64,000 nt of DNA from Alphaproteobacteria bacterium (GCA_965232515.1 CBDDPY010000002.1:4992001-5056000), one strand, 5' to 3'; positions 9,898 through 24,593 are shown, counted from the stretch's first letter. The notes: generated by a model from the letters alone, not told the origin. Numbers and translations: made by a program.

Positions 9898-11223
9898 TCA
9901 CCCCCTCAGACGATAGAGCTCCGGCAGCCACAGCGCGATCTGCGGGAACGCCATCACAATGGCGAGTCCGAAGATCATCACCGCGACGAACGGCACGATC
10001 GAGCGGTAGATATCCATCAGCGACACCTCCGGCGGCGCCATGGCGCGCATCAGGAACAGGTTGTAGCCGAACGGCGGTGTCATATAGGCGATCTGGCAGG
10101 TGATGGTGTAGAGCACGCCGTACCAGATCAGGTCGAAGCCGAGCGCGCCGACCAATGGCACGTAAAGCGGCGCCACGATCACCAGCATCGCCGTGTCGTC
10201 CAGGAACGTGCCCATGATCAGGTACGAGAGCTGCATCATGATCAGGATCTGCCAGGGGCTCAGGCCCATGCGGTCCACGAAGAAGCCCTCGATGGCCTTC
10301 ACCGCGCCCAGCCCGTCGAACACCGCGCCGAAGCAGAGCGCCGCCAGGATGATCCACATGAACATGCAGGAGATGCCGAGCGTCTTGCGCAGCGTCTCCT
10401 CCATCACCTTGCGCGTCAGCCGCCCCTTGGCGATCGCCGCCAGCGTCGCGGCCAGCGCGCCCACGGCCGAGCTCTCGGTCAGGTTGGTGACGCCCATCAG
10501 GAACAGGCCGGTCATCGAGAAGAAGATGAAGAGCGGCAGCAGGCCGGCGCGCAGCAACGAGAGCTTCTCGCGCATCGGCATGTCGCGTTCGTCGGCCGGC
10601 AGAGGCGGCCCCAGATGCGGCTGCAGCCGGCAGCGCACGACGATATAGACGATGAACAGCCCCGCCATCATCAGGCCGGGAAACACGCCGGCCAGCCAGA
10701 GCTGTCCCACCGGCTGCCGCGCGATCATGCCGTAGAGCACCAGCACCACGCTCGGCGGCACCAGAATGCCCAGCGACGAGCCGGCCTGGATCACGCCCGT
10801 CACCATGATCTTGTCGTAGCCGCGCCGCAGCAGCTCGGGCAGCGCGATGCTGGCGCCGATCGCCATGCCGGCGACGCTGAGCCCGTTCATGGCCGAGATC
10901 GCCACCATCAACCCGATCGTGCCGACCGCCAGCCCGCCCTTCAGCGGCCCGAACCAGACATGGAACATCTTGTAGAGGTCGTTAGCGATGCCCGACTCGG
11001 ACAGCATGTAGCCCATATAGATGAACAGCGGCAGCGTCAGCAGCGGATACCATTTCATCAGCTTCATGGCGGCGCTGAACGACAGCTCCGAGCCGCCTTC
11101 GCCCCACAGCAAGAGCGCCGCCACGACGGCGACGAAGCCGATGGCGCCGAACACCCGCTGCCCCGTCAGCAGCATCAGCATCATCGATGCGAACATCAGG
11201 ACGGCGATGAGCTCGTAGCTCAT
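9898..11223 (-). CDS. dctM: TRAP transporter large permease
   Basis: Very hydrophobic 441 aa; SSLGILVPPS, TPPFGYNLF motifs. Confidence 0.92.
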   Translation of the reverse strand: MSYELIAVLMFASMMLMLLTGQRVFGAIGFVAVVAALLLWGEGGSELSFSAAMKLMKWYPLLTLPLFIYMGYMLSESGIANDLYKMFHVWFGPLKGGLAVGTIGLMVAISAMNGLSVAGMAIGASIALPELLRRGYDKIMVTGVIQAGSSLGILVPPSVVLVLYGMIARQPVGQLWLAGVFPGLMMAGLFIVYIVVRCRLQPHLGPPLPADERDMPMREKLSLLRAGLLPLFIFFSMTGLFLMGVTNLTESSAVGALAATLAAIAKGRLTRKVMEETLRKTLGISCMFMWIILAALCFGAVFDGLGAVKAIEGFFVDRMGLSPWQILIMMQLSYLIMGTFLDDTAMLVIVAPLYVPLVGALGFDLIWYGVLYTITCQIAYMTPPFGYNLFLMRAMAPPEVSLMDIYRSIVPFVAVMIFGLAIVMAFPQIALWLPELYRLRG

Positions 11224-11759
11224 GCCAGGTCATCCCCGGCCGGCAGGTCGGCGCCCAGATCCAAACCGCGCAGCTTGGCTATGTCCTTGATCAGACTGGA
11301 AATCGCCTGCAGCAGCATCATGAAGATGCCGACGCACATGACGATCTTGATCGGCGCCATATAGGGCCGCCAGGCGGAATAGCTGCGCTCGCCGTACTCG
11401 ACCGCATAGACCGTGCTCGACAGCCCGCCGTAGAACAGCAGCGCCAGATAGAAGATCAGGAACAGCACGGTAAACGCGTCCACCCAGGTGCGCGTACGGT
11501 CCGACCAGGCGCCGTACAACAGGTCCATGCGCACATGGTCGCCCAGCTGCAGCGAATAGGCGCCGCCCAGCAGGAAATAGGCGACCATCAGGAACTGCGC
11601 CATTTCCAGCGTCCACAGGGGCGGGATGAAGAAGGTCTTCGTGAAGGACGAGTACAGCAGCACGCCCATCATGGCGAAAACCAGCAGCATGATCGCGCGG
11701 CCGATGACGCGGTTCACCGCGTCGACCGCGCGCACGTAGGCCGTCAGCGCCTTCGGCAT
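11220..11759 (-). CDS. dctQ: TRAP transporter small permease
   Basis: 4 TM segments, HVRMDLLY motif; 4-bp overlap with dctM. Confidence 0.9.
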   Translation of the reverse strand: MPKALTAYVRAVDAVNRVIGRAIMLLVFAMMGVLLYSSFTKTFFIPPLWTLEMAQFLMVAYFLLGGAYSLQLGDHVRMDLLYGAWSDRTRTWVDAFTVLFLIFYLALLFYGGLSSTVYAVEYGERSYSAWRPYMAPIKIVMCVGIFMMLLQAISSLIKDIAKLRGLDLGADLPAGDDLA

Positions 11760-11960
11760 GCGCCGCGTCCGCCGGCGCCACGAACGACGATGTCCGCGGG
11801 GCGTTGCTGACACATAGGACAAGCCCTCCCTGTCCGGCATGGCGTCTCCGCGCCAATACCGCCCGGACGGTAGCAAAGTTTATTGCAGGACGAAACGCTG
11901 GCTTGTCGGCGCGCGCGGTCCAACGGCCGCAAGGAAATCGTCGGCCATCCGCCACCAACC

Positions 11961-12046
11961 GTCATGCTGGCGCAGGCCAGCATCCAGCGGCTTTGCAGCA
12001 AGCTGAAGAATCAATAAACCTGGATCCTGGCCTGCGCCAGGATGAC
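11961..12046. repeat. Inverted pair of 27-bp REP-like palindromes
   Basis: GTCATGCTGGCGCAGGCCAGCATCCAG (11961-11987) and near reverse complement CTGGATCCTGGCCTGCGCCAGGATGAC (12020-12046); each unit is an internal hairpin. Confidence 0.8.
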
Positions 12047-12082
12047 CCGGATTCGCCGGGCGCGATACCGGTTCTCAGGCGG

Positions 12083-12217
12083 TCAGGACGACCCGATGCC
12101 GCCCGTCGGCGGTGGCAGGTTGCCCCGGCGTCCCTTGCGCAGGGAATCGGGCGAGACGCCGAAGATCCGGCAGATCCAGGCGACGAAACCGGACCACCAT
12201 TGCAAAACTGTACGCAT
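12083..12217 (-). CDS. Putative 44-aa small protein
   Basis: MRTVLQWWSGFVAWICRIFGVSPDSLRKGRRGNLPPPTGGIGSS*, preceded by GGGGAGG 7 nt upstream of ATG. Confidence 0.4.
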   Translation of the reverse strand: MRTVLQWWSGFVAWICRIFGVSPDSLRKGRRGNLPPPTGGIGSS

Positions 12218-12396
12218 ATCTCGACCTCCCCAAGCTGTTTCGCCCGCGCTGAAACGACGCGGACCCTCGATCGAGGTGCAACGCACATCCGCCTGGATAG
12301 TAGCACAAGATGCGATTGACCGCCGACGTTGTGCCGCGACGATGGTTTCGATAGAACCTGCTTCCCCCACGCGCATGCGGCAATGGAGACGACGAG

Positions 12397-12930
12397 ATGG
12401 TGCCGACGTTGGAAACGGACCGGCTGCGGCTGATGCCGCGCACGGCGGCCGATATCGACGCCTGCGTCGCCATGGACAGCGACCTCGAGGTTCGGCGCTA
12501 CATCACCCCCGACTTCCGCGACAACTTCGACGCCGCCGCCTATCGCGCAAGTCTTGGAGAACGCTTGGCGATCGATGCCGGGCCGGGCTTCGGCTGGTGG
12601 ATCATCCGCGATCGCGACACGCCCGGGCGCTTCCATGGTCTGGCCATGCTGATCCCGGTCGGTCTCGAGGGTCCGGAGATCGAGATCGGCTGGCGCCTGC
12701 CGCGCGCCTCTTGGGGGAATGGCTACGCGACCGAGGCCGCAATACGCATCCTCGCCCACGCCTTCGACGACGTCGGTCTGTCCGAGGTCATCGCCTGCAT
12801 CGATCCCGAGAACAGCCGCTCGATCGCCGTCGCCGCCCGCCTCGGCTTCGTCCGTGACGGCCGCAAGGCTGCCTACGGCACCGAGTTCGACCTCTATCGC
12901 CTGCGCCGCGACGCTACCGGTGCGGGCTGA
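12397..12930 (+). CDS. GNAT N-acetyltransferase (RimJ/RimL type)
   Basis: LETDRLRL, EIGWRL...WGNGYATEAA, NSRSIAVAARLGF. Confidence 0.9.
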   Translation: MVPTLETDRLRLMPRTAADIDACVAMDSDLEVRRYITPDFRDNFDAAAYRASLGERLAIDAGPGFGWWIIRDRDTPGRFHGLAMLIPVGLEGPEIEIGWRLPRASWGNGYATEAAIRILAHAFDDVGLSEVIACIDPENSRSIAVAARLGFVRDGRKAAYGTEFDLYRLRRDATGAG

Positions 12931-12942
12931 CCGCCGGCTGCG

Positions 12943-14256
12943 TCAGAAGCCGATCTCCAGTTCGATGCCGACGAAGAAGGCCGGGTCCGCGTCGTCCGCG
13001 AAGGCGTCGCCCGGCAGGAACGCGCCGGCGATCGCTTCGAGCTCGACCGTCTCGCTCACCTGATAGCCGATGATCAGGTCCACGCCGTTGCCGATTGTGC
13101 GGTCGTGGCCGTCGGGATCGGCGTCGATGGCGGCGTTGCGAAGTTCGTCCGACGCCTCGTGTTGCCGGTAATGGTGGTAGACGAGATCGATCGAGCTGTC
13201 GTCGGTCGGGCGCAGGCCGAGGCCGGCGGTCAGGATGATCAGGTTGCTGAGCTCCGGGTCCAGCACCTCGCCGTAATACTTGAAGCTGGTGATGCCGTTG
13301 AAGTCGTCGTTGTTGTCCTGCAGGCCAGTCTGCCGGAAAGCCCGGTTGGTGCCGTCGTCGGGATCGTCGTCGCCGCTGCCGAAGGCAAGGCCCAGCGTCA
13401 ATGACGGCTCCCATGGCGCGTCGGCCACGTAGCTCGCGCCGACATCGAAACCGTAGCCGCGGATGTCGTCGTCGCCGGCCGCGCCGCGCACATGCATGAG
13501 CTCGACCCAGTAATCGATATTGCCGGTCAGCGCGCCGATCGACTGCAGGCCGATAAAGACCGCGTCCTCGTCGCGGCGGTCGCGGCCGTCGCGATAAAAC
13601 AGATACGGGCTGATCTCACTGTCCTCGCCCACCGCGTAGCGCCCGAGCAGGAAATAGTTGTTGGGTTCGTCTTCCGAGCGGTCGCCCAACAGGTCTTTTT
13701 TGACCAGATCCTCGCGGCTGACCGATGCTTCCAGGCCGAAGGCCGCGCGGCGCAGATAGAGCCGGACGCCGTCCAGATCCTCGTCATAGAGCCATTCGCG
13801 CTTGTCCTCGAACGGCTGCCGGCCGAGCGTCAGCGACAGGCCGGGGAAGACCTCGCGGAAATTCGCATAGGCCTGCTTGACCACCAGCTCGGCGTCCGGC
13901 GAGCCCCGGCCGTCCGGCGCGTCGATGTTGATCTCCTTGTTTATCTCGACATTCAGGAACGCGCGGAACCACGGCGTCGGATCGTAGGAGAAGGCGAGCT
14001 CCAGTTCCGGCTTGACCGCCGTGACGTCGTCGCTCAGGCCGCGCTCCAGGTCGAGGTCGCGTTCATGGGTGAGTTCGAGCTTCAACTCGGCGCCGAAGGA
14101 CAGATTGGGCGTCAGCTGCAGCCGGGTGTCGGGCGGATCGTCGAAATCGAACTCGACGCCCGAATCGTTGATTTGCGCCGCCGCGATTGGCACCGTCGCC
14201 AACAGCACGCCGGCACACGCCAGGCAGACCTCAAGCCGACGGCGCCAGCCGGCCAT
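12943..14256 (-). CDS. Alginate-export (AlgE-like) outer-membrane beta-barrel
   Basis: Signal peptide; GRQPFEDKREWLYDEDLDG, GSGDDDP, FRQTGLQDN, YYGEVLDPELSNL; terminal Phe. Confidence 0.8.
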   Translation of the reverse strand: MAGWRRRLEVCLACAGVLLATVPIAAAQINDSGVEFDFDDPPDTRLQLTPNLSFGAELKLELTHERDLDLERGLSDDVTAVKPELELAFSYDPTPWFRAFLNVEINKEINIDAPDGRGSPDAELVVKQAYANFREVFPGLSLTLGRQPFEDKREWLYDEDLDGVRLYLRRAAFGLEASVSREDLVKKDLLGDRSEDEPNNYFLLGRYAVGEDSEISPYLFYRDGRDRRDEDAVFIGLQSIGALTGNIDYWVELMHVRGAAGDDDIRGYGFDVGASYVADAPWEPSLTLGLAFGSGDDDPDDGTNRAFRQTGLQDNNDDFNGITSFKYYGEVLDPELSNLIILTAGLGLRPTDDSSIDLVYHHYRQHEASDELRNAAIDADPDGHDRTIGNGVDLIIGYQVSETVELEAIAGAFLPGDAFADDADPAFFVGIELEIGF

Positions 14257-15523
14257 CTTCGTCGCGCCTCGGGGTCTGCGGCGCGTCCGATGTGTTCGTG
14301 TCGATGACGGGCATCGTCGTAACCGGGGCCGGTTTCACCGCCAGGAAGGCGTAGATCTCAGCCGCGATGGCGAGCGCGATGCGAACGCCCAGCATCGCCA
14401 TGACGCCCCAGGTGTTCCACAGGAAGCCCGCCAGGACCGGGCCGGCGACGCCGCCCGCCTCCTCGCCCAGGCTGAGCACCGCCATGGTGTGGGCGCGCTT
14501 GCGCCGGTCGAGGTCAGAATGCTGCGCCATCAGCGCGCCCCAGGCCGGCTTGAAGGCGGCCTTGCCGGCCTCGTCGATCAGACGACCGCCCATCATGCCG
14601 GCGAGGTTCGGCGCCACCATGAATACAATCGACGAGACCACGTTGGCGACGCCACGGACCCGCAGCACCAGGTTCCGGCTGACATTGTCGGACAACCAGC
14701 CAAAGCCGGGTCCCGCGACCAGCATGACCATCGCGGCCAGGAAATAGATCATGCCGGTCTCTGCCGCGCTCAGGCCGGCATACTCCACGGCCAGCACGGG
14801 GAACAGGCCGCCGATCATCTTGGCGCTGCTGCTCATCAAGAAGCCCAGCCCCATGATCGACACCAGCCGGCGCCGCAGGTCCGCCGGCCGGGCCTCGACG
14901 TCGGGCGTCTCGGCTGTCGCTTTCGCCGGCGCCGGCGTGCCGGATGCTTTCGCCGGCACGAAACGCCAGACCACGACGACCGGGATCAGCGACAGCAGGG
15001 CCGCGGCCACGAACACCAGTGAAAAATTCTGCGCCGTCGCCGTCAGCAGGATGCCGGCCAGCGCGTGGCCGAGCTTGCCCGAGACGCTCTTCACCGAGGC
15101 GTACCAGGCGAACGACGAGGCCACGGCCCGCTTGGCGCTGCGTTCGGCGATCAGGGCATAGGCCGCCGGGTCGCGCAGCGACCGCGATGCGCCATGCGCC
15201 ATGCGGATGGCGAAGAGATGCCAGGGCAGCCAGGCCAGCGCCAGCAGCAGGGACACCATCGAGCGTAAGGCCAAGGCCGCGACCAAACTGGGTTTCAGCC
15301 CGCAGCGGTCCGCCATCCGTCCCATCGCCGGCTTCAGGATCATGGCGACGGCGAAGTTCAGCGACAGCAGGATGCCGATCTCGGCGACCGACATGCCGAG
15401 ATGATGCGCGTAGAGCGGCAGGGCGAAGGCGATGATGCCGAAGCTGAGCCGGGACGCCAGCCCCTCGGCGACAATGGCCAGCAGAACCGTACGGTCGTGA
15501 CGCGGAGATTGTGCCATCGTCAT
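14231..15523 (-). CDS. MFS transporter
   Basis: About 12 TM segments; motif A GRMADRCGLK and second-half GWLSDNVSR; ATGA overlap with upstream ATP-grasp gene. Confidence 0.88.
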   Translation of the reverse strand: MTMAQSPRHDRTVLLAIVAEGLASRLSFGIIAFALPLYAHHLGMSVAEIGILLSLNFAVAMILKPAMGRMADRCGLKPSLVAALALRSMVSLLLALAWLPWHLFAIRMAHGASRSLRDPAAYALIAERSAKRAVASSFAWYASVKSVSGKLGHALAGILLTATAQNFSLVFVAAALLSLIPVVVVWRFVPAKASGTPAPAKATAETPDVEARPADLRRRLVSIMGLGFLMSSSAKMIGGLFPVLAVEYAGLSAAETGMIYFLAAMVMLVAGPGFGWLSDNVSRNLVLRVRGVANVVSSIVFMVAPNLAGMMGGRLIDEAGKAAFKPAWGALMAQHSDLDRRKRAHTMAVLSLGEEAGGVAGPVLAGFLWNTWGVMAMLGVRIALAIAAEIYAFLAVKPAPVTTMPVIDTNTSDAPQTPRRDEDGRLAPSA

Positions 15524-16515
15524 CCGGCCGCCGTCGCCGGGCTTGCCGGCAACGCCGGCCGATCGCCGGGCAGCGTGCACCGCCCGTCGGCATAGTCGGC
15601 GATATAGTCGGCGATCAGCGGCGCCGCACCCGGCACGCCCTTGTAGCCGGGGAAGTAGTTCACATCCACGACCACCGGACCTTCCGGCCCCTCGATAAAA
15701 TCAAGCCCATAGAGTCCGAGGCCGAAGACCTCGCCGCAACTGAGCGCGATCCGCCGCACCTCTTCGCTGATCTCACAGGCTTCGCCGGCCCGCGTGAAGC
15801 TCGTCGGCGAAAACCGCTTTCGCGTCCCGAATACTTCGCTGCCGACGACATAGACCTTCAGGTCTTCGCCCGGGCCGGGGACAAAGTCCTGCACGATGAC
15901 CGGAACCGGCGACGGCGGCACGGCCGCCAGCTCGACCGCGTTGCGCACGACATGGATGTCGGCGCCGCGATGCCCGCGGTGCGGCTTGATGATCAACGGG
16001 CCGTCCGCCAGTTGCGGCGCCAGCAGCGTCAGGTCGCCGGTCACCCACGAGCGTGGCGCCGGCAGGTCCGCGGCGCGCAGCCGTCGGCAGGCGGTGATCT
16101 TGTCCTGCGCCGCGAGGCACGCGGCATAGGGATTGAGCATGCGGGCGCCCTGGCCATGCAACGTCCCCGCGAGACTGAGCGTCAGCTCGGTATGCGACTT
16201 GATGACGTAAAGATCGTGTTCGACGTCCAGCAGGTCTGCCCGCACGACCATCTCTTCGGCGATGCCGGTTTCGACTCTGAAGCCCCGTCCGCGCAGGATG
16301 TCGAAGACCTCGCGCAGTACCGGGCTGTCCACCGGTGGGACGCGCCGGACCAGCAGGAAATACAAGCTTCCGTTGGCGACCCTTGAGGGTTTGGCAAAGC
16401 CTTTTCGCGCTGTCTTTCGCGCTTTTCCGGTGGCCTTCATCCCGCTGGCGGCTCGTCCGAGGTTGCCTTCATGGGTACCAAGACGAGGCTGGGGGCGCGT
16501 TGCGACGACCTTCAT
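15520..16515 (-). CDS. ATP-grasp protein #4 (RimK/ITPK1-like)
   Basis: QDK, LIIKPHRG, DLKVYVVG, YGLDFI...VVDVNYFPGYKGVP; start could be ATG 16440. Confidence 0.85.
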   Translation of the reverse strand: MKVVATRPQPRLGTHEGNLGRAASGMKATGKARKTARKGFAKPSRVANGSLYFLLVRRVPPVDSPVLREVFDILRGRGFRVETGIAEEMVVRADLLDVEHDLYVIKSHTELTLSLAGTLHGQGARMLNPYAACLAAQDKITACRRLRAADLPAPRSWVTGDLTLLAPQLADGPLIIKPHRGHRGADIHVVRNAVELAAVPPSPVPVIVQDFVPGPGEDLKVYVVGSEVFGTRKRFSPTSFTRAGEACEISEEVRRIALSCGEVFGLGLYGLDFIEGPEGPVVVDVNYFPGYKGVPGAAPLIADYIADYADGRCTLPGDRPALPASPATAAG

Positions 16516-17360
16516 GCTCGCTCCCCCCGGTCACGAGCGGCGTGCCCGTAGCCCTGGCCGGACTTGGCCTCCGCGCAGGCATCGTAAATATAGTCGGCCA
16601 GGTGCCGGCCGGCCTCCGGCACGCCTTTGAAGCCGGGAAAGGCGCTCGTGTCCACGACGTAGGGTCGGCCGTGGCTGATAACGACGTCGATTCCGAAGAC
16701 ATCGATACCGAAGGTTCGCCTGCAACGCATAACGATGTCGAGCAGGTCGTCGACGACTTCGAAAGGTTCACCCAGCTTTTGTTCATAGGTCTGCGCCGGC
16801 CACACGCGTTTGACGCCGAACACGCGTTCGCCGATGCAGTAGATCTTTCGATCCCGTCCTTCCGGCTCCTTGTAGCGTTGAGCTAAAACCGGCGACCTGT
16901 CGAGCGGGATCGTGCTCAGTTGATCTTGCATCCGAATGACATGTACGCCGCGCCCCCGTGAGCCCCGACAGGGCTTCACGATCAACGGCCCCTCATCCAG
17001 CAGGTCCACCAGTTGCTCCGGACGACTGGCGACATAGCTCTCCGGGGCCGGGATGTTGGCCGCCTCGAGCATCTGCGCGGCCACGATTTTGTCGCGCAGC
17101 ATCTCAGAGACCGGATAGGGATTGACGATCCGCGCGCCCAGAGCATGCAGCGCTCCGGCCAGGCTCAACGTCAAGTCGCTGCGATACTTCAAGATGTAGA
17201 GGTCATGTTCGACCCGTAATCGCGTCAGATCGGTCCGCCGTTCCTCCGGGGCGATGACCTCCACGGCAACGCCACGATCGGAAAGGCGCCGAATTATTTC
17301 GGCTGCGATGGAAACGCTATGTGTTTGACGCCCTGCGCGGAGGAACATGGCGATCCTCAT
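16512..17360 (-). CDS. ATP-grasp protein #3 (RimK/ITPK1-like)
   Basis: RDK, LIVKPCRGSRG, DRKIYCIG, FGIDVV...VVDTSAFPGFKGVP; GGAGGAG RBS before ATG 17360. Confidence 0.85.
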   Translation of the reverse strand: MRIAMFLRAGRQTHSVSIAAEIIRRLSDRGVAVEVIAPEERRTDLTRLRVEHDLYILKYRSDLTLSLAGALHALGARIVNPYPVSEMLRDKIVAAQMLEAANIPAPESYVASRPEQLVDLLDEGPLIVKPCRGSRGRGVHVIRMQDQLSTIPLDRSPVLAQRYKEPEGRDRKIYCIGERVFGVKRVWPAQTYEQKLGEPFEVVDDLLDIVMRCRRTFGIDVFGIDVVISHGRPYVVDTSAFPGFKGVPEAGRHLADYIYDACAEAKSGQGYGHAARDRGERA

Positions 17361-17520
17361 GTCGAACTCCTCCGGCTGGCTTTCCGCCCGCATGCTTCTC
17401 TTGTCGTCTGGTGAATGAAGGCAACATCGTCGGTCGCCGCCTGGTTCGAGCCCGGCCCCCGCAAATCGGGCCTTTCTTTGAGCAAGACGCTGCGTTGCAT
17501 TGCCATCGCCATCACCCATT

Positions 17521-18804
17521 TCATTCAGGTCGGGGTGCACGGGTAATCAGGCTGTATAGCGCTCGCCCGGTTAAGCGACCGCATTCGGACATCTCGTTAT
17601 GACGCGAGGGCCGCTGCCAGGCCCAGGTCATGGTCTTCAGGTCGATCAGCAGGTTCTCTCGTTGCCAGCCGCGGGCGAAACGGTCGTATCGGCTCATGAC
17701 CAGGTGGCCCAGGCGGCTGGCGCTGTCGATCGCGCAGATGCGTTCCATGGCGGCGCGGACGCCCTGGCTGCCCATGTCGCGGTCGAGCAGCACCGCCGCC
17801 GGATCGTCCGGGTTGCGGTAGTGCAGGGCCGCCGCGATACCGACCGCCAGGTTGGTCGGCCGCCGGCCGGCCTTCGCCGCCAGCCGGAGAGCGCCAACCA
17901 GCCGGTCGGCGGGCGCCAGCTTGCGAAAGGGATCGCGGGCAACGCGGGTCACGGGATCGTTCAGCACGGCATTGTCGAAGCGCCGGAGAACAGCCGTCAG
18001 GGTATCGCGGCCGCCGGCGATGGCGGCGCCGTAGCGGGCGGCGAGCCCGGCCTGTCCCTCGGCCATCGCCTTCCGGACGACGGCGCGAATCTCCGGATCG
18101 CGGACCGCCGCGTGAATGTAGCGATAGCCCTTCAGATAGCCGATATAGGCGCAGGTCGCGTGCCCGGCGCTGAACATGTAGAGCTTGCGGTGCACATGAG
18201 CGCCGTAATCGGCGGCGACTTTCATGCCGGCGATCACCGGTTTCGGATCGCGCAGCGCCCGGCCGTCGACGACGAACGTCTCGGCTTGGTCGCCGATCAG
18301 GGTCACCGGCTCGGCACAATCGCGCGCCATCTCGAGGTGCGATACCGCGCGCGAGACGAGGGCGCTGACGAAACCGTGCGCGCCGGCGCGGCGCGCGCCC
18401 AGTTCCCGCGCCACCAGTTGGCGTAGTCGGCGGCCCGGGTCTTCCAGGTTCTCGAAGGCGAGCACGTTGACCGGCGACTGTCGCCGCGCCAGTCCCGCCG
18501 AGATCAGCGGCGCCACGTCGGCCAGGTTGTCGGGCCCCACCGCGGTCGCCACCACATTGGCGTTGGCGATCTCGTCGACGGCGCGGGCCTGGTCGTGGAT
18601 CGACACCGCGTCGACTCCACCGACCTCGGTTTCCACACTGTCGGCGCCGTTCGACAACCGCACCCGATAACGCCCGGCCGTGTTCAGGTGCGACAGCAGA
18701 CGCTGGTTGCGCCCGATGAAGGTCAGGTCATAGCCGGACGCCCGCAGCAGATGGCCGGCGAAGCCGCAGCCGACCCGGCCGGGGCCGATGATGACGGCTT
18801 TCAT
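17521..18804 (-). CDS. Mannitol-1-phosphate 5-dehydrogenase-like (MtlD-like) polyol-phosphate dehydrogenase
   Basis: GPGRVGCGF Rossmann motif, ATAVGP, AFEN, HRKLYMFSAGHATCAYIG, RFDN..LNDPVTRVARDPFRKL...DRL. Confidence 0.82.
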   Translation of the reverse strand: MKAVIIGPGRVGCGFAGHLLRASGYDLTFIGRNQRLLSHLNTAGRYRVRLSNGADSVETEVGGVDAVSIHDQARAVDEIANANVVATAVGPDNLADVAPLISAGLARRQSPVNVLAFENLEDPGRRLRQLVARELGARRAGAHGFVSALVSRAVSHLEMARDCAEPVTLIGDQAETFVVDGRALRDPKPVIAGMKVAADYGAHVHRKLYMFSAGHATCAYIGYLKGYRYIHAAVRDPEIRAVVRKAMAEGQAGLAARYGAAIAGGRDTLTAVLRRFDNAVLNDPVTRVARDPFRKLAPADRLVGALRLAAKAGRRPTNLAVGIAAALHYRNPDDPAAVLLDRDMGSQGVRAAMERICAIDSASRLGHLVMSRYDRFARGWQRENLLIDLKTMTWAWQRPSRHNEMSECGRLTGRALYSLITRAPRPE

Positions 18805-19640
18805 TGCAGCACCCTCCGTGGGGCGGCGGGCGTCGAGGCCCAGTCGGCATCCTGGGCGCAGGTGTAGACATAGTCGGCCAGACGTAGCGCCGCGTCCGGC
18901 ACGCCCTTGAACCCGGGAAAGCTGTTAACATCGACGACATAGGCCTGACCGTTGCTGAAGATCACGTCGATCCCGAATACGTCGATGCCGAAGGCGCGGC
19001 CGCTCATCAAGGCGATATCCCGCAATTCCGCCGAGATCGTCAGCGGGCGGCCCAGCTTCTGCCGGTAGGTCCGGGCCGGCCATTCGCGCTCGACGCCGAA
19101 CACCTGTCCGTTGATGCAATAGATCTTGTGGTCGAAGCGGTCCGGCGCCTTGTAGCGCTGGGCGATGACGGGTCCGGTGCTGGCCGGCAGTTGTTCCAGC
19201 TCCGCGCGGTCGCGCACCACGCGGATACCCCGGCCCTTCGAACCGCGGGCCGGTTTGATGACCAGCGCGCCTTCTTCCAGGATCGACGCCAGATCGCTCG
19301 GCCTTTCGGCGGCATAGGCCGGCGGCGTCGGGATCCGCGCCCGCTGCAGAATGCGGTAGACGATCGCCTTGTCCCTCAGCATCGCGGCCACGGGAAAGGG
19401 ATTGATGATCCGCGCGCCGGTCGCGTGCAGCGCGCCGGCGAAGCTCAGCGCGCCTTCGCTGCTCGATTTCAGGACATAGAGGTCGTGATGGGGCCAGCGC
19501 TGGGTCAGACAGATCGGGCTTTCGTCCGGACAGATCAGGTCGATCTCCGCGCCCCACTCCGACAGCAGGTGGACCATCTCCCGCATGATCGGGCTGCTTT
19601 GTCCGTCCGGATGGGCGCGAACCAGAAAACCGATTTTCAC
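18801..19640 (-). CDS. ATP-grasp protein #2 (RimK/ITPK1-like)
   Basis: RDK, LVIKPARGSKG, DHKIYCING, FGIDVI...VVDVNSFPGFKGVP; GTG start overlaps the upstream stop. Confidence 0.85.
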   Translation of the reverse strand: MKIGFLVRAHPDGQSSPIMREMVHLLSEWGAEIDLICPDESPICLTQRWPHHDLYVLKSSSEGALSFAGALHATGARIINPFPVAAMLRDKAIVYRILQRARIPTPPAYAAERPSDLASILEEGALVIKPARGSKGRGIRVVRDRAELEQLPASTGPVIAQRYKAPDRFDHKIYCINGQVFGVEREWPARTYRQKLGRPLTISAELRDIALMSGRAFGIDVFGIDVIFSNGQAYVVDVNSFPGFKGVPDAALRLADYVYTCAQDADWASTPAAPRRVLQ

Positions 19641-20527
19641 GACACCCTCCCCTTATCCGATGCCGGCGCACCGTCCGCGCTCAGGCAATGGGCGGCGATG
19701 TAATCGGCCAAACGGTGATCGGCGTCCGGCACGGCGGAATAGTTCGGGAAGTCGTTCACCTCGATGACCACCAGGCCTCTCGAGCTTTCCAGGCAATCGA
19801 CGCCATAGAGATCGAGTTCGAAGGCCGCGCGGCAGGTCTGCGCCAGGCGCCGCATGGCTGGCGTCACCGTTACCAGCTCGGCATCGTCGTCCATGGCCGC
19901 GTGCGGCAGCGGCGACGGCTTGCGTACCGCCCAGAGGTCGGCGCCGATGCCGTAGAGTTTCAGGTCATAGCTGTCGCTCGGCAGGAAGTGCTGGGCCAGG
20001 ACCGTCGGATCCGGCCACGCGAGGTCCACCAGCTCGCGCGCGCTGTCGACGAGACGTATGCCGCGGGCATTGTCGCCGAAGACGGGCTTCAGGATCAGCG
20101 GGTAGTCCACGCCGGGGTTCAGTTTGCGCGGAAGCAGGGCGATCGGGCCGACGAACGTCCGCGGGATCGGCAACCCCTCCGCCGCCAGCACCATGGACAT
20201 GTGCGCCTTGTTCAGCACCGCTCTGATGCTGGCGCTGCGGTTGATGGTGGGCGTGCCCTGCCGTTCCGCATGGCTCAGCAGCAACAGAAGCATCAGGCTC
20301 CGGCCGCGGGCCACCACGGCGTCGAACGTGATGGTCGGTGAACGATTGTCGAAACGGCAAACGGCGGCGTCCGGGTCGACCAGCTCGACGTCATAGCCGC
20401 GCTCGGCGAGCGCCGTCATCACGCCGGCGGGCTGCGGCTGCGACATGTAGCGCCGCTCGGCCAGAATGCCGATCTTCGGTGCCGTCGACGACCGACGGCA
20501 CCCCTGTGGGGATAGTCCCATCGTCAT
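19637..20527 (-). CDS. ATP-grasp protein #1 (RimK/ITPK1-like)
   Basis: LNK, PLILKPVFG, DLKLYGIG, YGVDCL...VIEVNDFPNYSAVP; AGAGGG RBS. Confidence 0.85.
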   Translation of the reverse strand: MTMGLSPQGCRRSSTAPKIGILAERRYMSQPQPAGVMTALAERGYDVELVDPDAAVCRFDNRSPTITFDAVVARGRSLMLLLLLSHAERQGTPTINRSASIRAVLNKAHMSMVLAAEGLPIPRTFVGPIALLPRKLNPGVDYPLILKPVFGDNARGIRLVDSARELVDLAWPDPTVLAQHFLPSDSYDLKLYGIGADLWAVRKPSPLPHAAMDDDAELVTVTPAMRRLAQTCRAAFELDLYGVDCLESSRGLVVIEVNDFPNYSAVPDADHRLADYIAAHCLSADGAPASDKGRVS

Positions 20528-20610
20528 GCCCTCTTTATTTCTGCGTCGCGGATTTCGTTTTGCCGCCGCCCGACTGCGGCATCCGCTGTCAATTCGTGTT
20601 TAGTTTGTTC

Positions 20611-20650
20611 GTTTCAGTTTTATGACAAATTTACACGGCGCAGATGACAA
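20611..20650 (-). promoter_or_regulatory. PhoB-box-like (OmpR-family) direct repeats upstream of the ATP-grasp operon
   Basis: Minus strand TTGTCAT-N15-TTGTCAT-AAAA-CTGAAAC; the two TTGTCAT units are 22 bp apart (11-bp periodicity) in an AT-rich leader. Confidence 0.55.
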
Positions 20651-20810: not shown

Positions 20811-21605
20811 TCACTCAGGCATGCTGCGCCAGGTCTCCGCGCATTCGGTGCAGGACGACCGGCGCGGATGCAGAAACGCGAACGGGTTTGCCGTCAACGT
20901 CGGCACGACGGTGTCGACCACATCGCGGGCGCGCATCAGCTTCGCTGGTGCGTATCCGACCGGGCCTTCGGCTTGCAGGCCGCGTTCCGTCAGCCAGGCG
21001 TTCGCCAGGCGGAACAGCGCGCAGCAATGATCGTTCTCCAGATAGTCGATCCGCGTCGGCCGGCCGTCCCGCGACACGGTGATGTGCTTCGGGCGCCGGT
21101 AGGGCACGTCCGCCAGCAATTCGGCCAGATGCAGCATGGTGCTGGCGTCGTGGTCGACGCCCAGCAGCAGCACCTTGCCGTCGGCCTCCAGCACGCGCCC
21201 GACCGGGCTCTCGTGCTGATGCGGTGGCAGCACCAGATCGTCGGCCAGGATCTCGGTGGCCTTCGGCCCGCGCGCCGAGAACGCGAAGGCATGCCGGCCG
21301 CGCTTGACGCCCGGCAGCAGCCGGAATGTTTCGGCGACGACACCCAGATCCTCCGCCACCGGCGTCGATACGGGATCGAACACGGCGTCGTCGTCGCCAG
21401 TCCACGACGGCATCGCGATCGTGCCCTCGGGCCCGACGGCTGCGCCCAGCGCCGCAATCAACCCGGCCGGCCCGCCCGCCACCGGCCGCACCGCGCGAAA
21501 CGACGTATGCACCAGCACGACATCGCCACGCGCGACGCCGAGCGCCTGGAGCTGGGCGACGAGCTCCGGCACAGAAATCTCGCAACGGGCATGCCATGCG
21601 GTCAT
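20811..21605 (-). CDS. AAC(3) family aminoglycoside N-acetyltransferase, AAC(3)-IV-like
   Basis: LVHTSFRAVRP, MPSWTGDDD, DLGVV, LLLGVDHDASTMLHLAE, DYLENDHCC, C-terminal FLHP...CTEC Cys cluster. Confidence 0.88.
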   Translation of the reverse strand: MTAWHARCEISVPELVAQLQALGVARGDVVLVHTSFRAVRPVAGGPAGLIAALGAAVGPEGTIAMPSWTGDDDAVFDPVSTPVAEDLGVVAETFRLLPGVKRGRHAFAFSARGPKATEILADDLVLPPHQHESPVGRVLEADGKVLLLGVDHDASTMLHLAELLADVPYRRPKHITVSRDGRPTRIDYLENDHCCALFRLANAWLTERGLQAEGPVGYAPAKLMRARDVVDTVVPTLTANPFAFLHPRRSSCTECAETWRSMPE

Positions 21606-21766
21606 GGATCAAGCGCTTTTCTATAGGGTTGGCAGGTAGGGTCCGAATACGTTGACCGGGCGATGGCGAAGCCGGGGCGAAAAGACAGAGTCGATTCCAT
21701 GTATCGAGGGATCATAGCTTGAAGACCGTTTCTGGAGCGCCGGATTTGTCTTCGTCGTAAAATACA

Positions 21767-21776
21767 GGTATATACC
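21767..21776. promoter_or_regulatory. Palindrome, candidate MarR autoregulatory operator
   Basis: GGTATATACC perfect palindrome 6 bp upstream of the marR ATG. Confidence 0.45.
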
Positions 21777-21782
21777 CATAAT

Positions 21783-22199
21783 ATGACCGACACCGCCTGC
21801 ATGTGTATCGGGCTGCGCCGGGCCGGCCGAGCGGTCACGCGTTTCTACGATGACGCCCTGGCGCCGGCCGGGGTGAACGCCACGCAGTTCTCCCAGTTGC
21901 GCGCGATCCTGCGGGCCGGATCCCCGACCATCGGCGCGCTGGCTGACGCCACCGATCTCGACCGCAGCACGCTTGGACGCAATATCCGCGTCCTCGCGCG
22001 CATGGGTCTCGTCCGGTTCGAGCCGGGCGCGGACGAGCGCACGCGCCTTGTGTCGGTTACCACGGATGGCAAGCGGGTGTTGAAGGCCGCCACGCCGCTT
22101 TGGCGGACGGCGCAGTCGGCGCTCGCCGAGAAGCTGGGCGCCGGTCGCCGCGCCGTCCTGTTCGATCTTCTGCATGAGTTGGAGACCGTCGACGTCTGA
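21783..22199 (+). CDS. MarR family regulator
   Basis: C.C..LRRA.R..TR.YD..L...G, DRSTLGRN, DERTR wing motif. Confidence 0.9.
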   Translation: MTDTACMCIGLRRAGRAVTRFYDDALAPAGVNATQFSQLRAILRAGSPTIGALADATDLDRSTLGRNIRVLARMGLVRFEPGADERTRLVSVTTDGKRVLKAATPLWRTAQSALAEKLGAGRRAVLFDLLHELETVDV

Positions 22200-22250
22200 G
22201 TTTGCAACCGGCCGCGACAGACGGCCGGGCGACAAGAAGGGAGGCCGAAA

Positions 22251-24593
22251 ATGATGCAGCCACGGACCGAGCCATCGGCGCTGAAGTCCGTCGTCTGTAC
22301 CAGTTGCGACGGCTTTTGCCCCGTCGCGGCGAAGGTCGAGGACGGCCGCGTCGTCAAGGTCACCACCCGCGAGCACCCGTTCTTCAAGGACGTGATCTGC
22401 ATGAAGGGCGCCTATGCGCCGAAGTCCTTCGCGCATCCCGACCGCCTTCTGCATCCGCTGAAGCGCACCGGCGCGCGGGGCGAGGGCGGCTGGCAGCAGG
22501 TCACCTGGGACGACGCGCTCGACGACATCGCCGAGCGCCTGCGAACGGTCGTCGCCCGGTACGGGCCCGAAGCTTTCGCCGTCGCCGCCAGCAACGCCAA
22601 TTTCGGCCTCGACAACGGCCTGACGCGGCGGTTCATGAACCTCATCGGCTCGCCCAACTTCATCAGCGGCGTGGCCTACTGCATGGGCAACACGGCCGCC
22701 GTCAACCGCATGGTCTACGGCTGGTACCCGCGCGGCGACATCCTCAATTCGAAATGCATCGTGCTGTTCGGCCACGATCCCCGCCGGCATAGCTGGACGC
22801 TGGAATACAAATCCATCCGCGTCGCCCAGGCCGGCGGCGCCAAGCTGATCGTGCTCGACCCTCGCAAAAGCGAGAACGCCGAGGCCGCCGATATCTGGCT
22901 GCCGCTGCGCGCCGGCACCGACGCCGCCATGACCCTGGGCTGGCTGAACGTGATCCTGGAAGAGAGCCTCTACGACAAGGATTTCGTGCGCGACTGGACC
23001 GTCGGCTTCGACGCCTTTGCCGAGCGCGTGCGCGAGTATCCGCTGGACCGGGTCGCCGAGATCACCGGCGTCGACGCCGAACTGATCGCCGGGGCGGCGC
23101 GCATGTACGCCATGTCGTCGCCTGCCGTGATCCCCTGGTCCCCGATCACCGACCAGCAGGCCTCCTCGACCTCGGCGATCCGGCTGCAATGCGCCCTGCG
23201 GGCGCTCACCGGCAATCTCGACGTCAAGGGCGGCGAGATGTTCGCCGGCTTTCATCCCGGCATCCGCTCGGACACCGAGATCGAGCTGCATGACGAACTG
23301 TCCGACGCGCAGAAGGCGAAGCAGCTCGGGGCCGAAGAATTCCCGGTCTTCACCTATCGCGGCATGCGGGCGCTGGGCGATGCGACCGAACGCGTCTGGG
23401 GCGCGCGCTGGGCCAACCTGATTTCGGGCTGCTACATGGCGAACCCCATGGCCGTGTTCAAGGCCATGGCCGACGGCGATCCTTATCCCGTGCGGGCGTT
23501 CTTCGCGCTCGCCAACAACACGCTGATGTCGTTCGCCAACACCCGGCGGATCTACGACGCGCTGATGCGGCAGGACCTGATCGTCGCCTACGAGCATATG
23601 CTGACGCCGACGGCCCAGCTCGCCGACTACGTGCTGCCGGGCGACGCCTGGCTCGAGCGGCCGAGCATGATGGCGGGGCTCAGCGAGCAGGCCATGGCGC
23701 CGCCCGGCGACTGCAAGTCGATCGTGTATTTCTGGTGCGAGTTGGCAAACCGGATGGGAATGGAAGCGTATTTCCCGTGGGCATCGGTGGAAGCGCTGCT
23801 GGATTTCCGTCTGGAGCCGGCGGAGACGACCTGGGAGGGAGTCGTCGCCGCCGGCCGCCTGCCGAAGGCCGGCTACGAGGAGAAGAAGTATCTCAAGACC
23901 GGTTTCGCCACGCCGTCGGGCAAGGTCGAGCTCGCGTCCTCGGTGCTGGGCGATCTCGGCTTCGACCCACTGCCCTACTACCGCGAGGCCGCGGCGCCGG
24001 ACACCGACTTTCCGATGACCATGTTCATCGGCCTGCCCGACGACGAGTATTACCGCACCGGCCACCGGCATATCCCGGAATTGCGTCAGCGGGCGCAGGA
24101 CCCGACGCTCTTCGTCAACCCGGACGACGCCGACCGGCTCTGTCTGGACGAAGGCGGCTGGGCCCGGGTCGAAACCGCGGCCGGCGCCATGGCCGGCCGC
24201 GTCTTCGTGCGCTCGGCCATGCCGGCCGGGCTCATCCGCGTGCCGCACGGCTGGTGGAAACCGGAATCGCGGCCCGGTCTCGAGAACATGTCCGGCATGT
24301 GGTCGTTCGCCGACGCGCAGCTCACGTCGGACGACGATCCCGACCTGATCGACCGCGAGCAGGGCGTGCCGCACCTGAAGGGCGTGCCCTGTCGCATTTC
24401 CGCGCTCGACCCGGCCGAGGTCGCCCGGCTCGAAGCCGAGTTCGGCCCCACCGACCGGCTGCCGCGCGGCCCCGAGGGAAAGGTGCTGCGCGCGAAAAGC
24501 CGGCCCGGCGACCTCACGTTTGACGACGAATTCGGCGACGGCGTCGAATTCGAAGCGGTTCAGCTTTCCCTTTACGGCCGCGGCTCTGTATAG
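22251..24593 (+). CDS. Mo/W-bisPGD oxidoreductase (DMSO reductase superfamily), acetylene-hydratase-like
   Basis: CTSCDGFC...CMK [4Fe-4S] motif, RRFMNLIGSPN, YCMGNTA, IPW..TDQQ.SS.SAIR.QC.LRA, GDAWLERP; GGGAGG RBS. Confidence 0.88.
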   Translation: MMQPRTEPSALKSVVCTSCDGFCPVAAKVEDGRVVKVTTREHPFFKDVICMKGAYAPKSFAHPDRLLHPLKRTGARGEGGWQQVTWDDALDDIAERLRTVVARYGPEAFAVAASNANFGLDNGLTRRFMNLIGSPNFISGVAYCMGNTAAVNRMVYGWYPRGDILNSKCIVLFGHDPRRHSWTLEYKSIRVAQAGGAKLIVLDPRKSENAEAADIWLPLRAGTDAAMTLGWLNVILEESLYDKDFVRDWTVGFDAFAERVREYPLDRVAEITGVDAELIAGAARMYAMSSPAVIPWSPITDQQASSTSAIRLQCALRALTGNLDVKGGEMFAGFHPGIRSDTEIELHDELSDAQKAKQLGAEEFPVFTYRGMRALGDATERVWGARWANLISGCYMANPMAVFKAMADGDPYPVRAFFALANNTLMSFANTRRIYDALMRQDLIVAYEHMLTPTAQLADYVLPGDAWLERPSMMAGLSEQAMAPPGDCKSIVYFWCELANRMGMEAYFPWASVEALLDFRLEPAETTWEGVVAAGRLPKAGYEEKKYLKTGFATPSGKVELASSVLGDLGFDPLPYYREAAAPDTDFPMTMFIGLPDDEYYRTGHRHIPELRQRAQDPTLFVNPDDADRLCLDEGGWARVETAAGAMAGRVFVRSAMPAGLIRVPHGWWKPESRPGLENMSGMWSFADAQLTSDDDPDLIDREQGVPHLKGVPCRISALDPAEVARLEAEFGPTDRLPRGPEGKVLRAKSRPGDLTFDDEFGDGVEFEAVQLSLYGRGSV

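Follow-up and report, generated by a model that had tools for sequence, protein, structure and literature searches.

The window analysed here is a 64,000-nucleotide stretch of DNA from an Alphaproteobacteria bacterium (GCA_965232515.1, CBDDPY010000002.1:4992001-5056000). On its minus strand, at 12943-20527, seven co-oriented genes, G1 to G7, form one operon that encodes four ATP-grasp paralogues, an MtlD-like dehydrogenase, a major facilitator superfamily (MFS) transporter and an outer-membrane barrel of the AlgE family. The conserved unit consists of five genes, namely the G1-type, G2-type and G5-type ATP-grasps, the MtlD-like dehydrogenase and the MFS transporter; the fourth ATP-grasp and the AlgE-like barrel are optional accessories. 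Small-molecule operons with ATP-grasp enzymes at their centre are a kind already known, and this cassette belongs to it as a new form. What is new here is the putative pstS-like Pho box before the operon, and the wide spread of a five-gene cassette that has gone undescribed. The cassette is probably linked to phosphate starvation, with a sugar or polyol phosphate as its substrate.

The junctions between the genes were read directly from the sequence. G1 (19637-20527), a G1-type ATP-grasp that carries E-x-N and RGRS motifs, meets G2 (18801-19640), of the G2/G4-type orthogroup, at a GTGA at 19637-19640. ATGA junctions join G2 to G3 (17521-18804), which encodes an MtlD-like hexitol-phosphate dehydrogenase of a divergent subfamily (18801-18804), G4 (16512-17357), a divergent second G2-type ATP-grasp, to G5 (15520-16515), of the G5-type orthogroup with a conserved domain from about residue 50 (16512-16515), and G5 to the MFS gene G6 (14231-15523), a core cassette member (15520-15523). 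The last of these junctions sets the start of G6 at the ATG at 15523, giving a protein of 430 aa, instead of at that of a longer GTG open reading frame (ORF). The G6 stop at 14231 lies beyond the ATG at 14256 of the accessory gene G7 (12943-14256, AlgE-family barrel), and the two genes overlap by 26 bp and are translationally coupled. The single gap, of about 160 bp, separates the G3 stop at 17521 from the G4 ATG at 17357. The original prediction had described these overlaps and the one gap correctly, and its ATP-grasp, MtlD-like, MFS and AlgE-family assignments were borne out by Pfam. Downstream, the operon is bounded by a convergent GNAT gene (12397-12930, plus strand); upstream, a 283-bp AT-rich spacer precedes an AAC(3)-like gene (20811-21605).

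Relatives were collected by a scan with a profile from alignment A1, taking one genome per GTDB species. This yielded 193, of which 80 were kept, corresponding to 77 distinct loci. A scan with a single protein as query returned zero relatives. Presence and order of the genes in the 77 loci were scored by tblastn with the window proteins. One locus (L012, from genome G062, which is flagged as unpublished) is included in all 77-locus counts, as one row of alignment A5 and as one of the nine phytase genomes described below. The loci span Pseudomonadota, Acidobacteriota, Chloroflexota, Actinomycetota, Myxococcota, Elusimicrobiota, Eisenbacteria and one metagenome-assembled genome (MAG) labelled Bacillota. 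G1, a G2-type gene, G5 and the MFS gene were all present in 52 loci, and the exact order G1, G2-type, MtlD, G5, MFS was kept in 36, with many of the others cut by contig ends. The MtlD-like gene was on the same strand in 54 loci and on the opposite strand in 7. At least three ATP-grasp matches were found in 60 loci and at least four in 22. A FastTree phylogeny of 232 ATP-grasp ORFs resolved three orthogroups, G1-type, G2/G4-type and G5-type, the first of which was found in 66 loci with a clade support of 100. Because the core order is kept in other phyla, the gene arrangement goes beyond chance. The seven-gene set that the original prediction had put forward as one system is thus not conserved as such, and only its five-gene core is kept; the AlgE-like gene, which had been counted as part of the system, recurs at a single locus (L011, from a betaproteobacterium).

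The G2 protein has 826 homologues at E≤0.001. Across phyla they are 52-60% identical; the matches listed are 53-60% identical, apart from two closer homologues at 92% and 67% identity, and their source names are hypothetical protein or S6-glutamate ligase. Among 60 relatives of the same family or class as the window's organism, no orthologue was found; matches above E 1e-13 were all weak and to other ATP-grasps. The distribution of the cassette is patchy. Full-text literature searches found no description of the five-gene cassette, in line with the original prediction, which knew of no described bacterial pathway with such an architecture, and an atlas search with the cassette family returned only its own unnamed clusters. 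A conserved small carrier or precursor gene inside the cassette was considered and rejected. The sole recurrent candidate was an ORF of about 80 aa between the MtlD-like gene and G5, seen at five loci, all from Chloroflexota (L016:3217, L022:12061, L033:11136, L037:12164 and L050:8770).

The ATP-grasp paralogues share motifs with inositol 1,3,4-trisphosphate 5/6-kinases (ITPKs). ITPKs are reported from eukaryotes and Asgard archaea, and inositol phosphates had been regarded as a eukaryotic hallmark (PMC6900528, PMC8024741). The four paralogues carry EVNDFPNY, DVNSFPGFKGVP, DTSAFPGFKGVP and DVNYFPGYKGVP, and D.K.Y is found in 4/4, as the original prediction had quoted. The ITPK family Ins134_P3_kin (PF05770) matched all four at 29.8-42.5 bits (gathering score 23), with 29.8 bits for G1, 30.3 for G2 and 42.5 for G5. 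The last 84 residues of G2 had human ITPK1 (2q7d) as their best solved match, at 36 bits versus 27.8 for RimK, and share with it the C-terminal string FGxD...V[VI]D[VI]NxFPG[YF]xGV. ITPK1 2q7d also matched the G5 family profile with 54.6 bits, at positions 202-268 only (67 positions), and the best match of the central 81 residues of G5 was AtITPK4, at a weak E value of 0.011. In ITPKs (7pup, 7tn6) and in the cassette family alike, the Lys of F-K-x-Y-V-x-G is followed by a basic-Ser-Pro loop; the corresponding strand of RimK and LysX reads D-I-R, whereas that of the cassette family reads D-x-K (D-L-K). The D-x-N-x-F-P-G-[YF] motif and the K-x-[YF]-V-x-G Lys are present in the paralogues, with G1 (E-x-N) and G4 (D-T-S) as exceptions. 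The substrate loop of RimK and LysX, S/T-N-x-x-R-G-G, differs from the F-S-x-x-S-F-x-x-P-G of the cassette family, in which neither the RimK loop FRSNLHRGG nor the LysX loop ITNTARGG is conserved.

The cassette resembles ITPK1 and PPIP5K systems further in having multiple paralogues per genome, as reported for Lokiarchaeum, with four (PMC6900528), and in a kinase-phosphatase fusion logic comparable to the dual domains of PPIP5K (PMC8024741). Its ATP-grasps align significantly with ITPKs over only about 55-65 C-terminal residues. Its hosts are bacteria, the window's genome is without an inositol-phosphate synthase, and the fixed partner is a dehydrogenase for acyclic hexitol phosphates. By sequence and fold, the ATP-grasp family appears as a clade of its own between ITPK kinases and RimK/LysX ligases, falling short in a membership test for each of the two. 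G4 is 50% identical to G2, sits on a long tree branch (0.66) and has a metal motif in which D-x-N reads D-T-S; its catalysis may be altered or lost.

The dehydrogenase G3 matched the Pfam families Mannitol_dh and Mannitol_dh_C and aligned end to end with Shigella MtlD (3h2z, 3.5e-55). Its best NCBIfam equivalog was NF002652, at 247.7 bits versus a cut-off of 356, and every other NCBIfam equivalog was likewise below its cut-off. Lys207 and His215, the catalytic pair, are invariant in the G3 family, and RVGRDPxRKL is retained. MtlD has these two residues as well, together with the RVGRxPxRKL segment and the two Pfam domains. The Asn of the canonical L-N-T-G-H (K-x4-N-x2-H) is Ser in most members of the family, which also has an extra conserved C-terminal segment, GW..GN.LLSL....WAW. 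Unlike MtlD, the G3-type gene never lies beside a mannitol phosphotransferase system in cassette loci. G6 matched MFS_1 (5.8e-43), and an alignment of 54 orthologues with the window protein revealed four conserved membrane Arg residues (Arg25, Arg87, Arg107 and Arg325) and three conserved acidic ones (Glu20, Asp317 and Asp318). G7 matched nearly the whole Alginate_exp profile (PF13372, 1.6e-43, 149.4 bits versus a cut-off of 25.2; residues 52-423, profile positions 3-385 of 395) and has a signal-peptide-like N-terminus, both of which recall AlgE. Unlike AlgE, it is coupled translationally to an MFS gene and is very acidic (pI 4.19, 87 D+E versus 37 K+R). No alginate biosynthesis genes were found near G7, whose neighbours are MFS, GNAT and TRAP transporter genes.

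Upstream of the operon, 84-123 nt before the G1 start, TGTCA-type units phased at 11 bp form an array (20611-20650, minus strand) that resembles a Pho box, for which consensus sequences are known from the literature. We located the pstS gene of the window's genome via PhoU and compared its upstream array. The 18-mer at 20611-20628 was identical to that of pstS at 15/18 positions, in the same orientation and likewise intergenic. With up to three mismatches, the pstS 18-mer occurs at five sites in 7.39 Mb, where composition alone predicts about 1.0. The five comprise the pstS site itself, the G1 promoter, a site upstream of a CYTH-CHAD gene (C2:4410685) and two others. A looser pattern gave sites in the same genome before a Na/Pi cotransporter gene with a PhoU domain (C2:5542374) and before an IMPase-family gene adjoining a solute-binding protein gene (C2:5823939). 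In Actinomycetota, pairs of GTTCACC repeats matching at 11/14 positions or more were found in 5/20 upstream regions versus 16/800 control windows, an enrichment that is at most suggestive, the controls being mostly coding and the loci related. A sigma-70 promoter scan of the region found nothing. Because the putative pstS-like Pho box precedes it, the operon is probably induced by phosphate starvation.

The gene neighbours of the cassette in the 77 loci were surveyed by strict clustering and then with more sensitive hidden Markov models (HMMs). By strict clustering, no non-core neighbour family occurred in more than 9/77 loci. The sensitive HMMs detected IMPase-family genes in 12 loci, and in five of these a G2-type ATP-grasp and an IMPase form a single in-frame ORF, two of them confirmed by Pfam. 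A beta-propeller phytase (PF02333) adjoins the cassette in eight loci with confident matches, one 22.5-bit match at L050 being left uncounted; PMC9306846 provides background on bacterial phytases. Among 125 downstream or inserted ORFs, phytase (six) shared first place among Pfam families with FHA, Yop-YscD_cpl and Response_reg. At L011 the MFS gene is followed by genes for a phytase (650 aa), a HAD hydrolase and an AlgE-like protein, in that order, and at L067 GmhA-like and HddA-like genes occupy the MtlD slot. The recurrent metabolic neighbours all concern phosphate esters. Together, the IMPase fusions, the neighbouring phytases and the GmhA/HddA swap gave independent support to the link with inositol or polyol phosphates that the original prediction had drawn. 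The phytase was rejected as a fixed partner and regarded as an accessory, because PF02333 was found in only 9/50 cassette genomes, in five of which it lies within the fetched cassette locus.

Fusions were also seen among longer homologues. The partners in 76 longer G2 homologues were IMPase (13), NUDIX (2), APH (1) and a GT28 domain (about 50). Among 29 longer G5 homologues, 14 had MFS domains, 12 had mannitol dehydrogenase domains and 3 matched ATP-grasp families only. The G5-MFS and MtlD-G5 fusions join operon neighbours, which demonstrates coupling but not pathway order. The ATP-grasp-GT28 fusions were considered as cassette members and rejected, since none of 45 ATP-grasp-bearing loci (among 78 metagenome loci) had other cassette genes; they represent a sister system, separate from the cassette. 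This system was seen in soil metagenomes (L106-L145, L150, L154, L166, L174 and L177) as a fusion of about 715 aa between a G2-like ATP-grasp (41-51% identical) and a GT28-type glycosyltransferase domain, with an APH-family phosphotransferase nearby in 24/45 loci and an ABC exporter in 13. A fusion of about 1050 aa between FHA, a Ser/Thr protein kinase and a G6-related MFS domain was observed at L087:16870-20016 and at six other Acidobacteriota loci. It adjoins phytase and the cassette, and a DUF3616 protein recurs in eight loci.

Our preferred reading, which as a whole we put forward tentatively, combines ATP-grasps acting as phosphotransferases, an MtlD-like step, transport by the MFS protein and the barrel, and a link to the Pho response. 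G3 would interconvert a ketose phosphate (e.g. fructose-6-P) and a hexitol phosphate (e.g. mannitol-1-P). The ATP-grasp paralogues would act serially as position-specific phosphotransferases between ATP/ADP and the hydroxyls of a polyol or cyclitol phosphate. G6 would move the anionic compound through the inner membrane. As the organism is a diderm, passage through the outer membrane would fall to the AlgE-like barrel. At other loci, where genes for IMPase, HAD or phytase accompany the cassette, their products would trim or recover phosphate. Phosphoryl transfer is ranked first on three grounds: the motifs resemble those of ITPKs, the ligase loop is lost, and fusions link the ATP-grasps to phosphohydrolases and to a kinase. 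The compound may be made and exported, or imported and harvested. That ITPK-like kinases occur in many soil and groundwater bacteria, with the cassette building or remodelling a polyphosphorylated polyol, seems unlikely. In one version of this idea, mannitol-1-P could be fully phosphorylated to an acyclic phytate analogue; because mannitol has C2 symmetry, three position-specific kinases (1/6, 2/5 and 3/4) could suffice. In another, imported inositol phosphates could be remodelled.

A number of observations weigh against the phosphotransferase reading. The PF05770 matches are confined to profile positions ~140-200 of 201, the C-terminal ~55 residues, and no other ITPK-specific family was listed for the four paralogues at E≤0.1. 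RimK (PF08443) also matched all four, at 31.3-58.4 bits (gathering score 21), with 31.3 bits for G1, 58.4 for G2 and 45.3 for G5. The best NCBIfam models were rimK_fam and LysX, although all four paralogues were below the cut-offs of rimK_fam (TIGR00768, 73.2-89.2 bits versus 143.4, with 89.2 for G1) and LysX_arch (64-74 bits versus 275.6). RimK 7qys matched the G5 family profile with 92.8 bits over positions 76-261. In Foldseek searches with AlphaFold2 models of G5 (pLDDT 89.6) and G2 (pLDDT 80.9), ArgX, LysX and RimK ranked first for both, with TMq values of 0.73-0.79. For G2, ArgX and LysX scored 0.76-0.79, PPIP5K2 0.69-0.71 and ZmITPK1 0.73; ZmITPK1 ranked 45-48 for G5 and 18 for G2, with TMq values of 0.63-0.73 overall. 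In VIA, the G5 model matched ArgX, LysX and RimK at Z 22-24 and the kinase domains of PPIP5K2, Asp1 and Vip1 at Z 20-21.4, and ITPK1 was absent from the top 50 entries. The claim in the original prediction that ITPKs are the closer relatives thus holds for the C-terminal segment and the Lys strand but not for whole-domain scores or fold, where the models fall nearest to the very ligases that the prediction had named as counting against it. Fold ranking of these models does not by itself separate kinase from ligase. Further, the D-x-N Asn is variable in G2-type proteins and Ser in G4. The best solved relatives of G6 are the exporters NorA (4.9e-8) and EfpA. A cell short of phosphate would have little reason to export a phosphorus-rich product, and import via an exporter-like MFS protein is also awkward. 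PF02333 was unmatched in 41/50 cassette genomes, many of which are incomplete MAGs, and in the window's genome (96% complete) we found neither a PF01658 inositol-phosphate synthase nor a PF02333 phytase. Phytase adjacency may merely mirror clustering of Pho-regulon genes, and the IMPase fusions would also suit terminal dephosphorylation after a ligase.

A ligase pathway we regard as possible but doubtful and rank a close second to phosphotransfer; it accounts better for the global similarity, the exporter-like MFS protein, the GmhA/HddA swap and Pho induction. In such a pathway, the dehydrogenase (or GmhA/HddA in L067) would draw on central metabolism for a scaffold, either a sugar phosphate or a polyol phosphate, and the three ATP-grasps would act as carboxylate ligases that serially add acyl or aminoacyl groups. 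IMPase or HAD, where present, would strip the scaffold phosphate, and the MFS protein and, in diderms, the AlgE-like barrel would export the product. Under phosphate starvation, this product would assist in mobilising phytate or phosphate bound to minerals. Consistent with this, RimK, LysX and ArgX are the nearest relatives of the ATP-grasps by whole-domain HMM and by fold, and G1 retains E-x-N. The ATP-grasps share with these ligases the three-domain ATP-grasp fold with a pre-ATP-grasp domain. The likeness of the MFS protein to NorA and EfpA, together with weak NCBIfam matches to the metallophore exporters CntE and FslB, also points to export, the GmhA/HddA pair in the MtlD slot of L067 is anabolic, and a Pho box suits a phosphorus-sparing secreted product. 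The fusions of an ATP-grasp to a terminal phosphatase resemble the synthase/phosphatase pairs of compatible-solute pathways. However, the substrate loop typical of RimK and LysX is not retained, and Lys replaces the Arg of D-I-R. The conserved cassette genes include none for a carrier protein or precursor peptide, no gene supplying a carboxylate partner recurs among the neighbours, and the IMPase gene is missing from 65/77 fetched loci. The NUDIX and APH fusions better fit phosphate chemistry.

The same lack of a substrate loop and of a conserved LysW-like or peptide gene, with only the ~80-aa ORF at five Chloroflexi loci, makes it highly improbable that the ATP-grasps modify protein or peptide C-termini in the manner of RimK or LysX (poly-glutamylation or carrier-protein chemistry), with no connection to the dehydrogenase or the transporter. 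The best structural matches, ArgX and LysX with LysW, and RimK, would favour such a role, and JGI labels many homologues S6--L-glutamate ligase. All models nevertheless scored under the family cut-offs, and, unlike RimK and LysX, the cassette ATP-grasps have no S6-type or LysW-type partner. Their setting is instead an operon shared with a transporter and a sugar-phosphate dehydrogenase, with tight linkage and fusions to MtlD, MFS and IMPase. Ordinary polyol catabolism is a little less remote but still very unlikely. Here, the MFS protein would import free hexitols or inositols, the ATP-grasps would be unusual polyol kinases of differing specificities, and oxidation of the polyol phosphate by the MtlD-like enzyme would give fructose-6-P. 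G3 is homologous to MtlD over its full length, and the MtlD-G5-MFS order and the G5-MFS and MtlD-G5 fusions fit a sequence of uptake, phosphorylation and oxidation. This scheme does not account for three orthogroups kept at about 1:1:1 across phyla with one dehydrogenase, nor for a Pho box upstream in place of a sugar regulator; it leaves the phytase, IMPase and GmhA/HddA contexts unexplained, and the MFS protein is exporter-like.

Other features surround the operon in the window. The co-oriented gene just upstream of the Pho box (20811-21605, minus strand) encodes a homologue of AAC(3)-IV-like aminoglycoside N-acetyltransferases (NF033081, 380 bits versus a cut-off of 420; Pfam Antibiotic_NAT, 1.3e-50), and no such gene adjoined the cassette among the 77 other loci. 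Downstream of the operon, genes for the DctM and DctQ components of a tripartite ATP-independent periplasmic (TRAP) transporter lie at 9898-11876 (minus strand); ORFs at 11962-12857, which may include the TRAP binding protein, had no Pfam match. Further upstream, a molybdopterin oxidoreductase (22251-24593, plus strand) is the real gene of its region, and a 917-aa minus-strand ORF over it (21621-24374), without a Pfam match, is probably its antisense shadow. Elsewhere in the assembly, the small contigs C3 (5516 bp, 46% G+C) and C4 (10862 bp, 42%) differ from the main contig (65.5%) and may be foreign DNA, mobile DNA or contamination.

On either reading of the ATP-grasps, the five genes form a compact unit that has hundreds of homologues but has been assigned no function. 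If its ATP-grasps are ligases, phosphate limitation would induce it to make an undescribed metabolite for secretion, with a bearing on phosphorus mobilisation in soils. If they act instead as phosphotransferases on polyol or inositol phosphates, kinase chemistry of the inositol-phosphate type would extend to bacteria of at least eight named phyla and would be tied to the bacterial phosphate-starvation response and to soil phytate turnover. The origin of the scyllo-, neo- and D-chiro-inositol phosphates of soil is described as unclear in PMC5984642. If the cassette remodels imported inositol phosphates, it would offer a microbial route into this soil pool of non-plant inositol phosphates.

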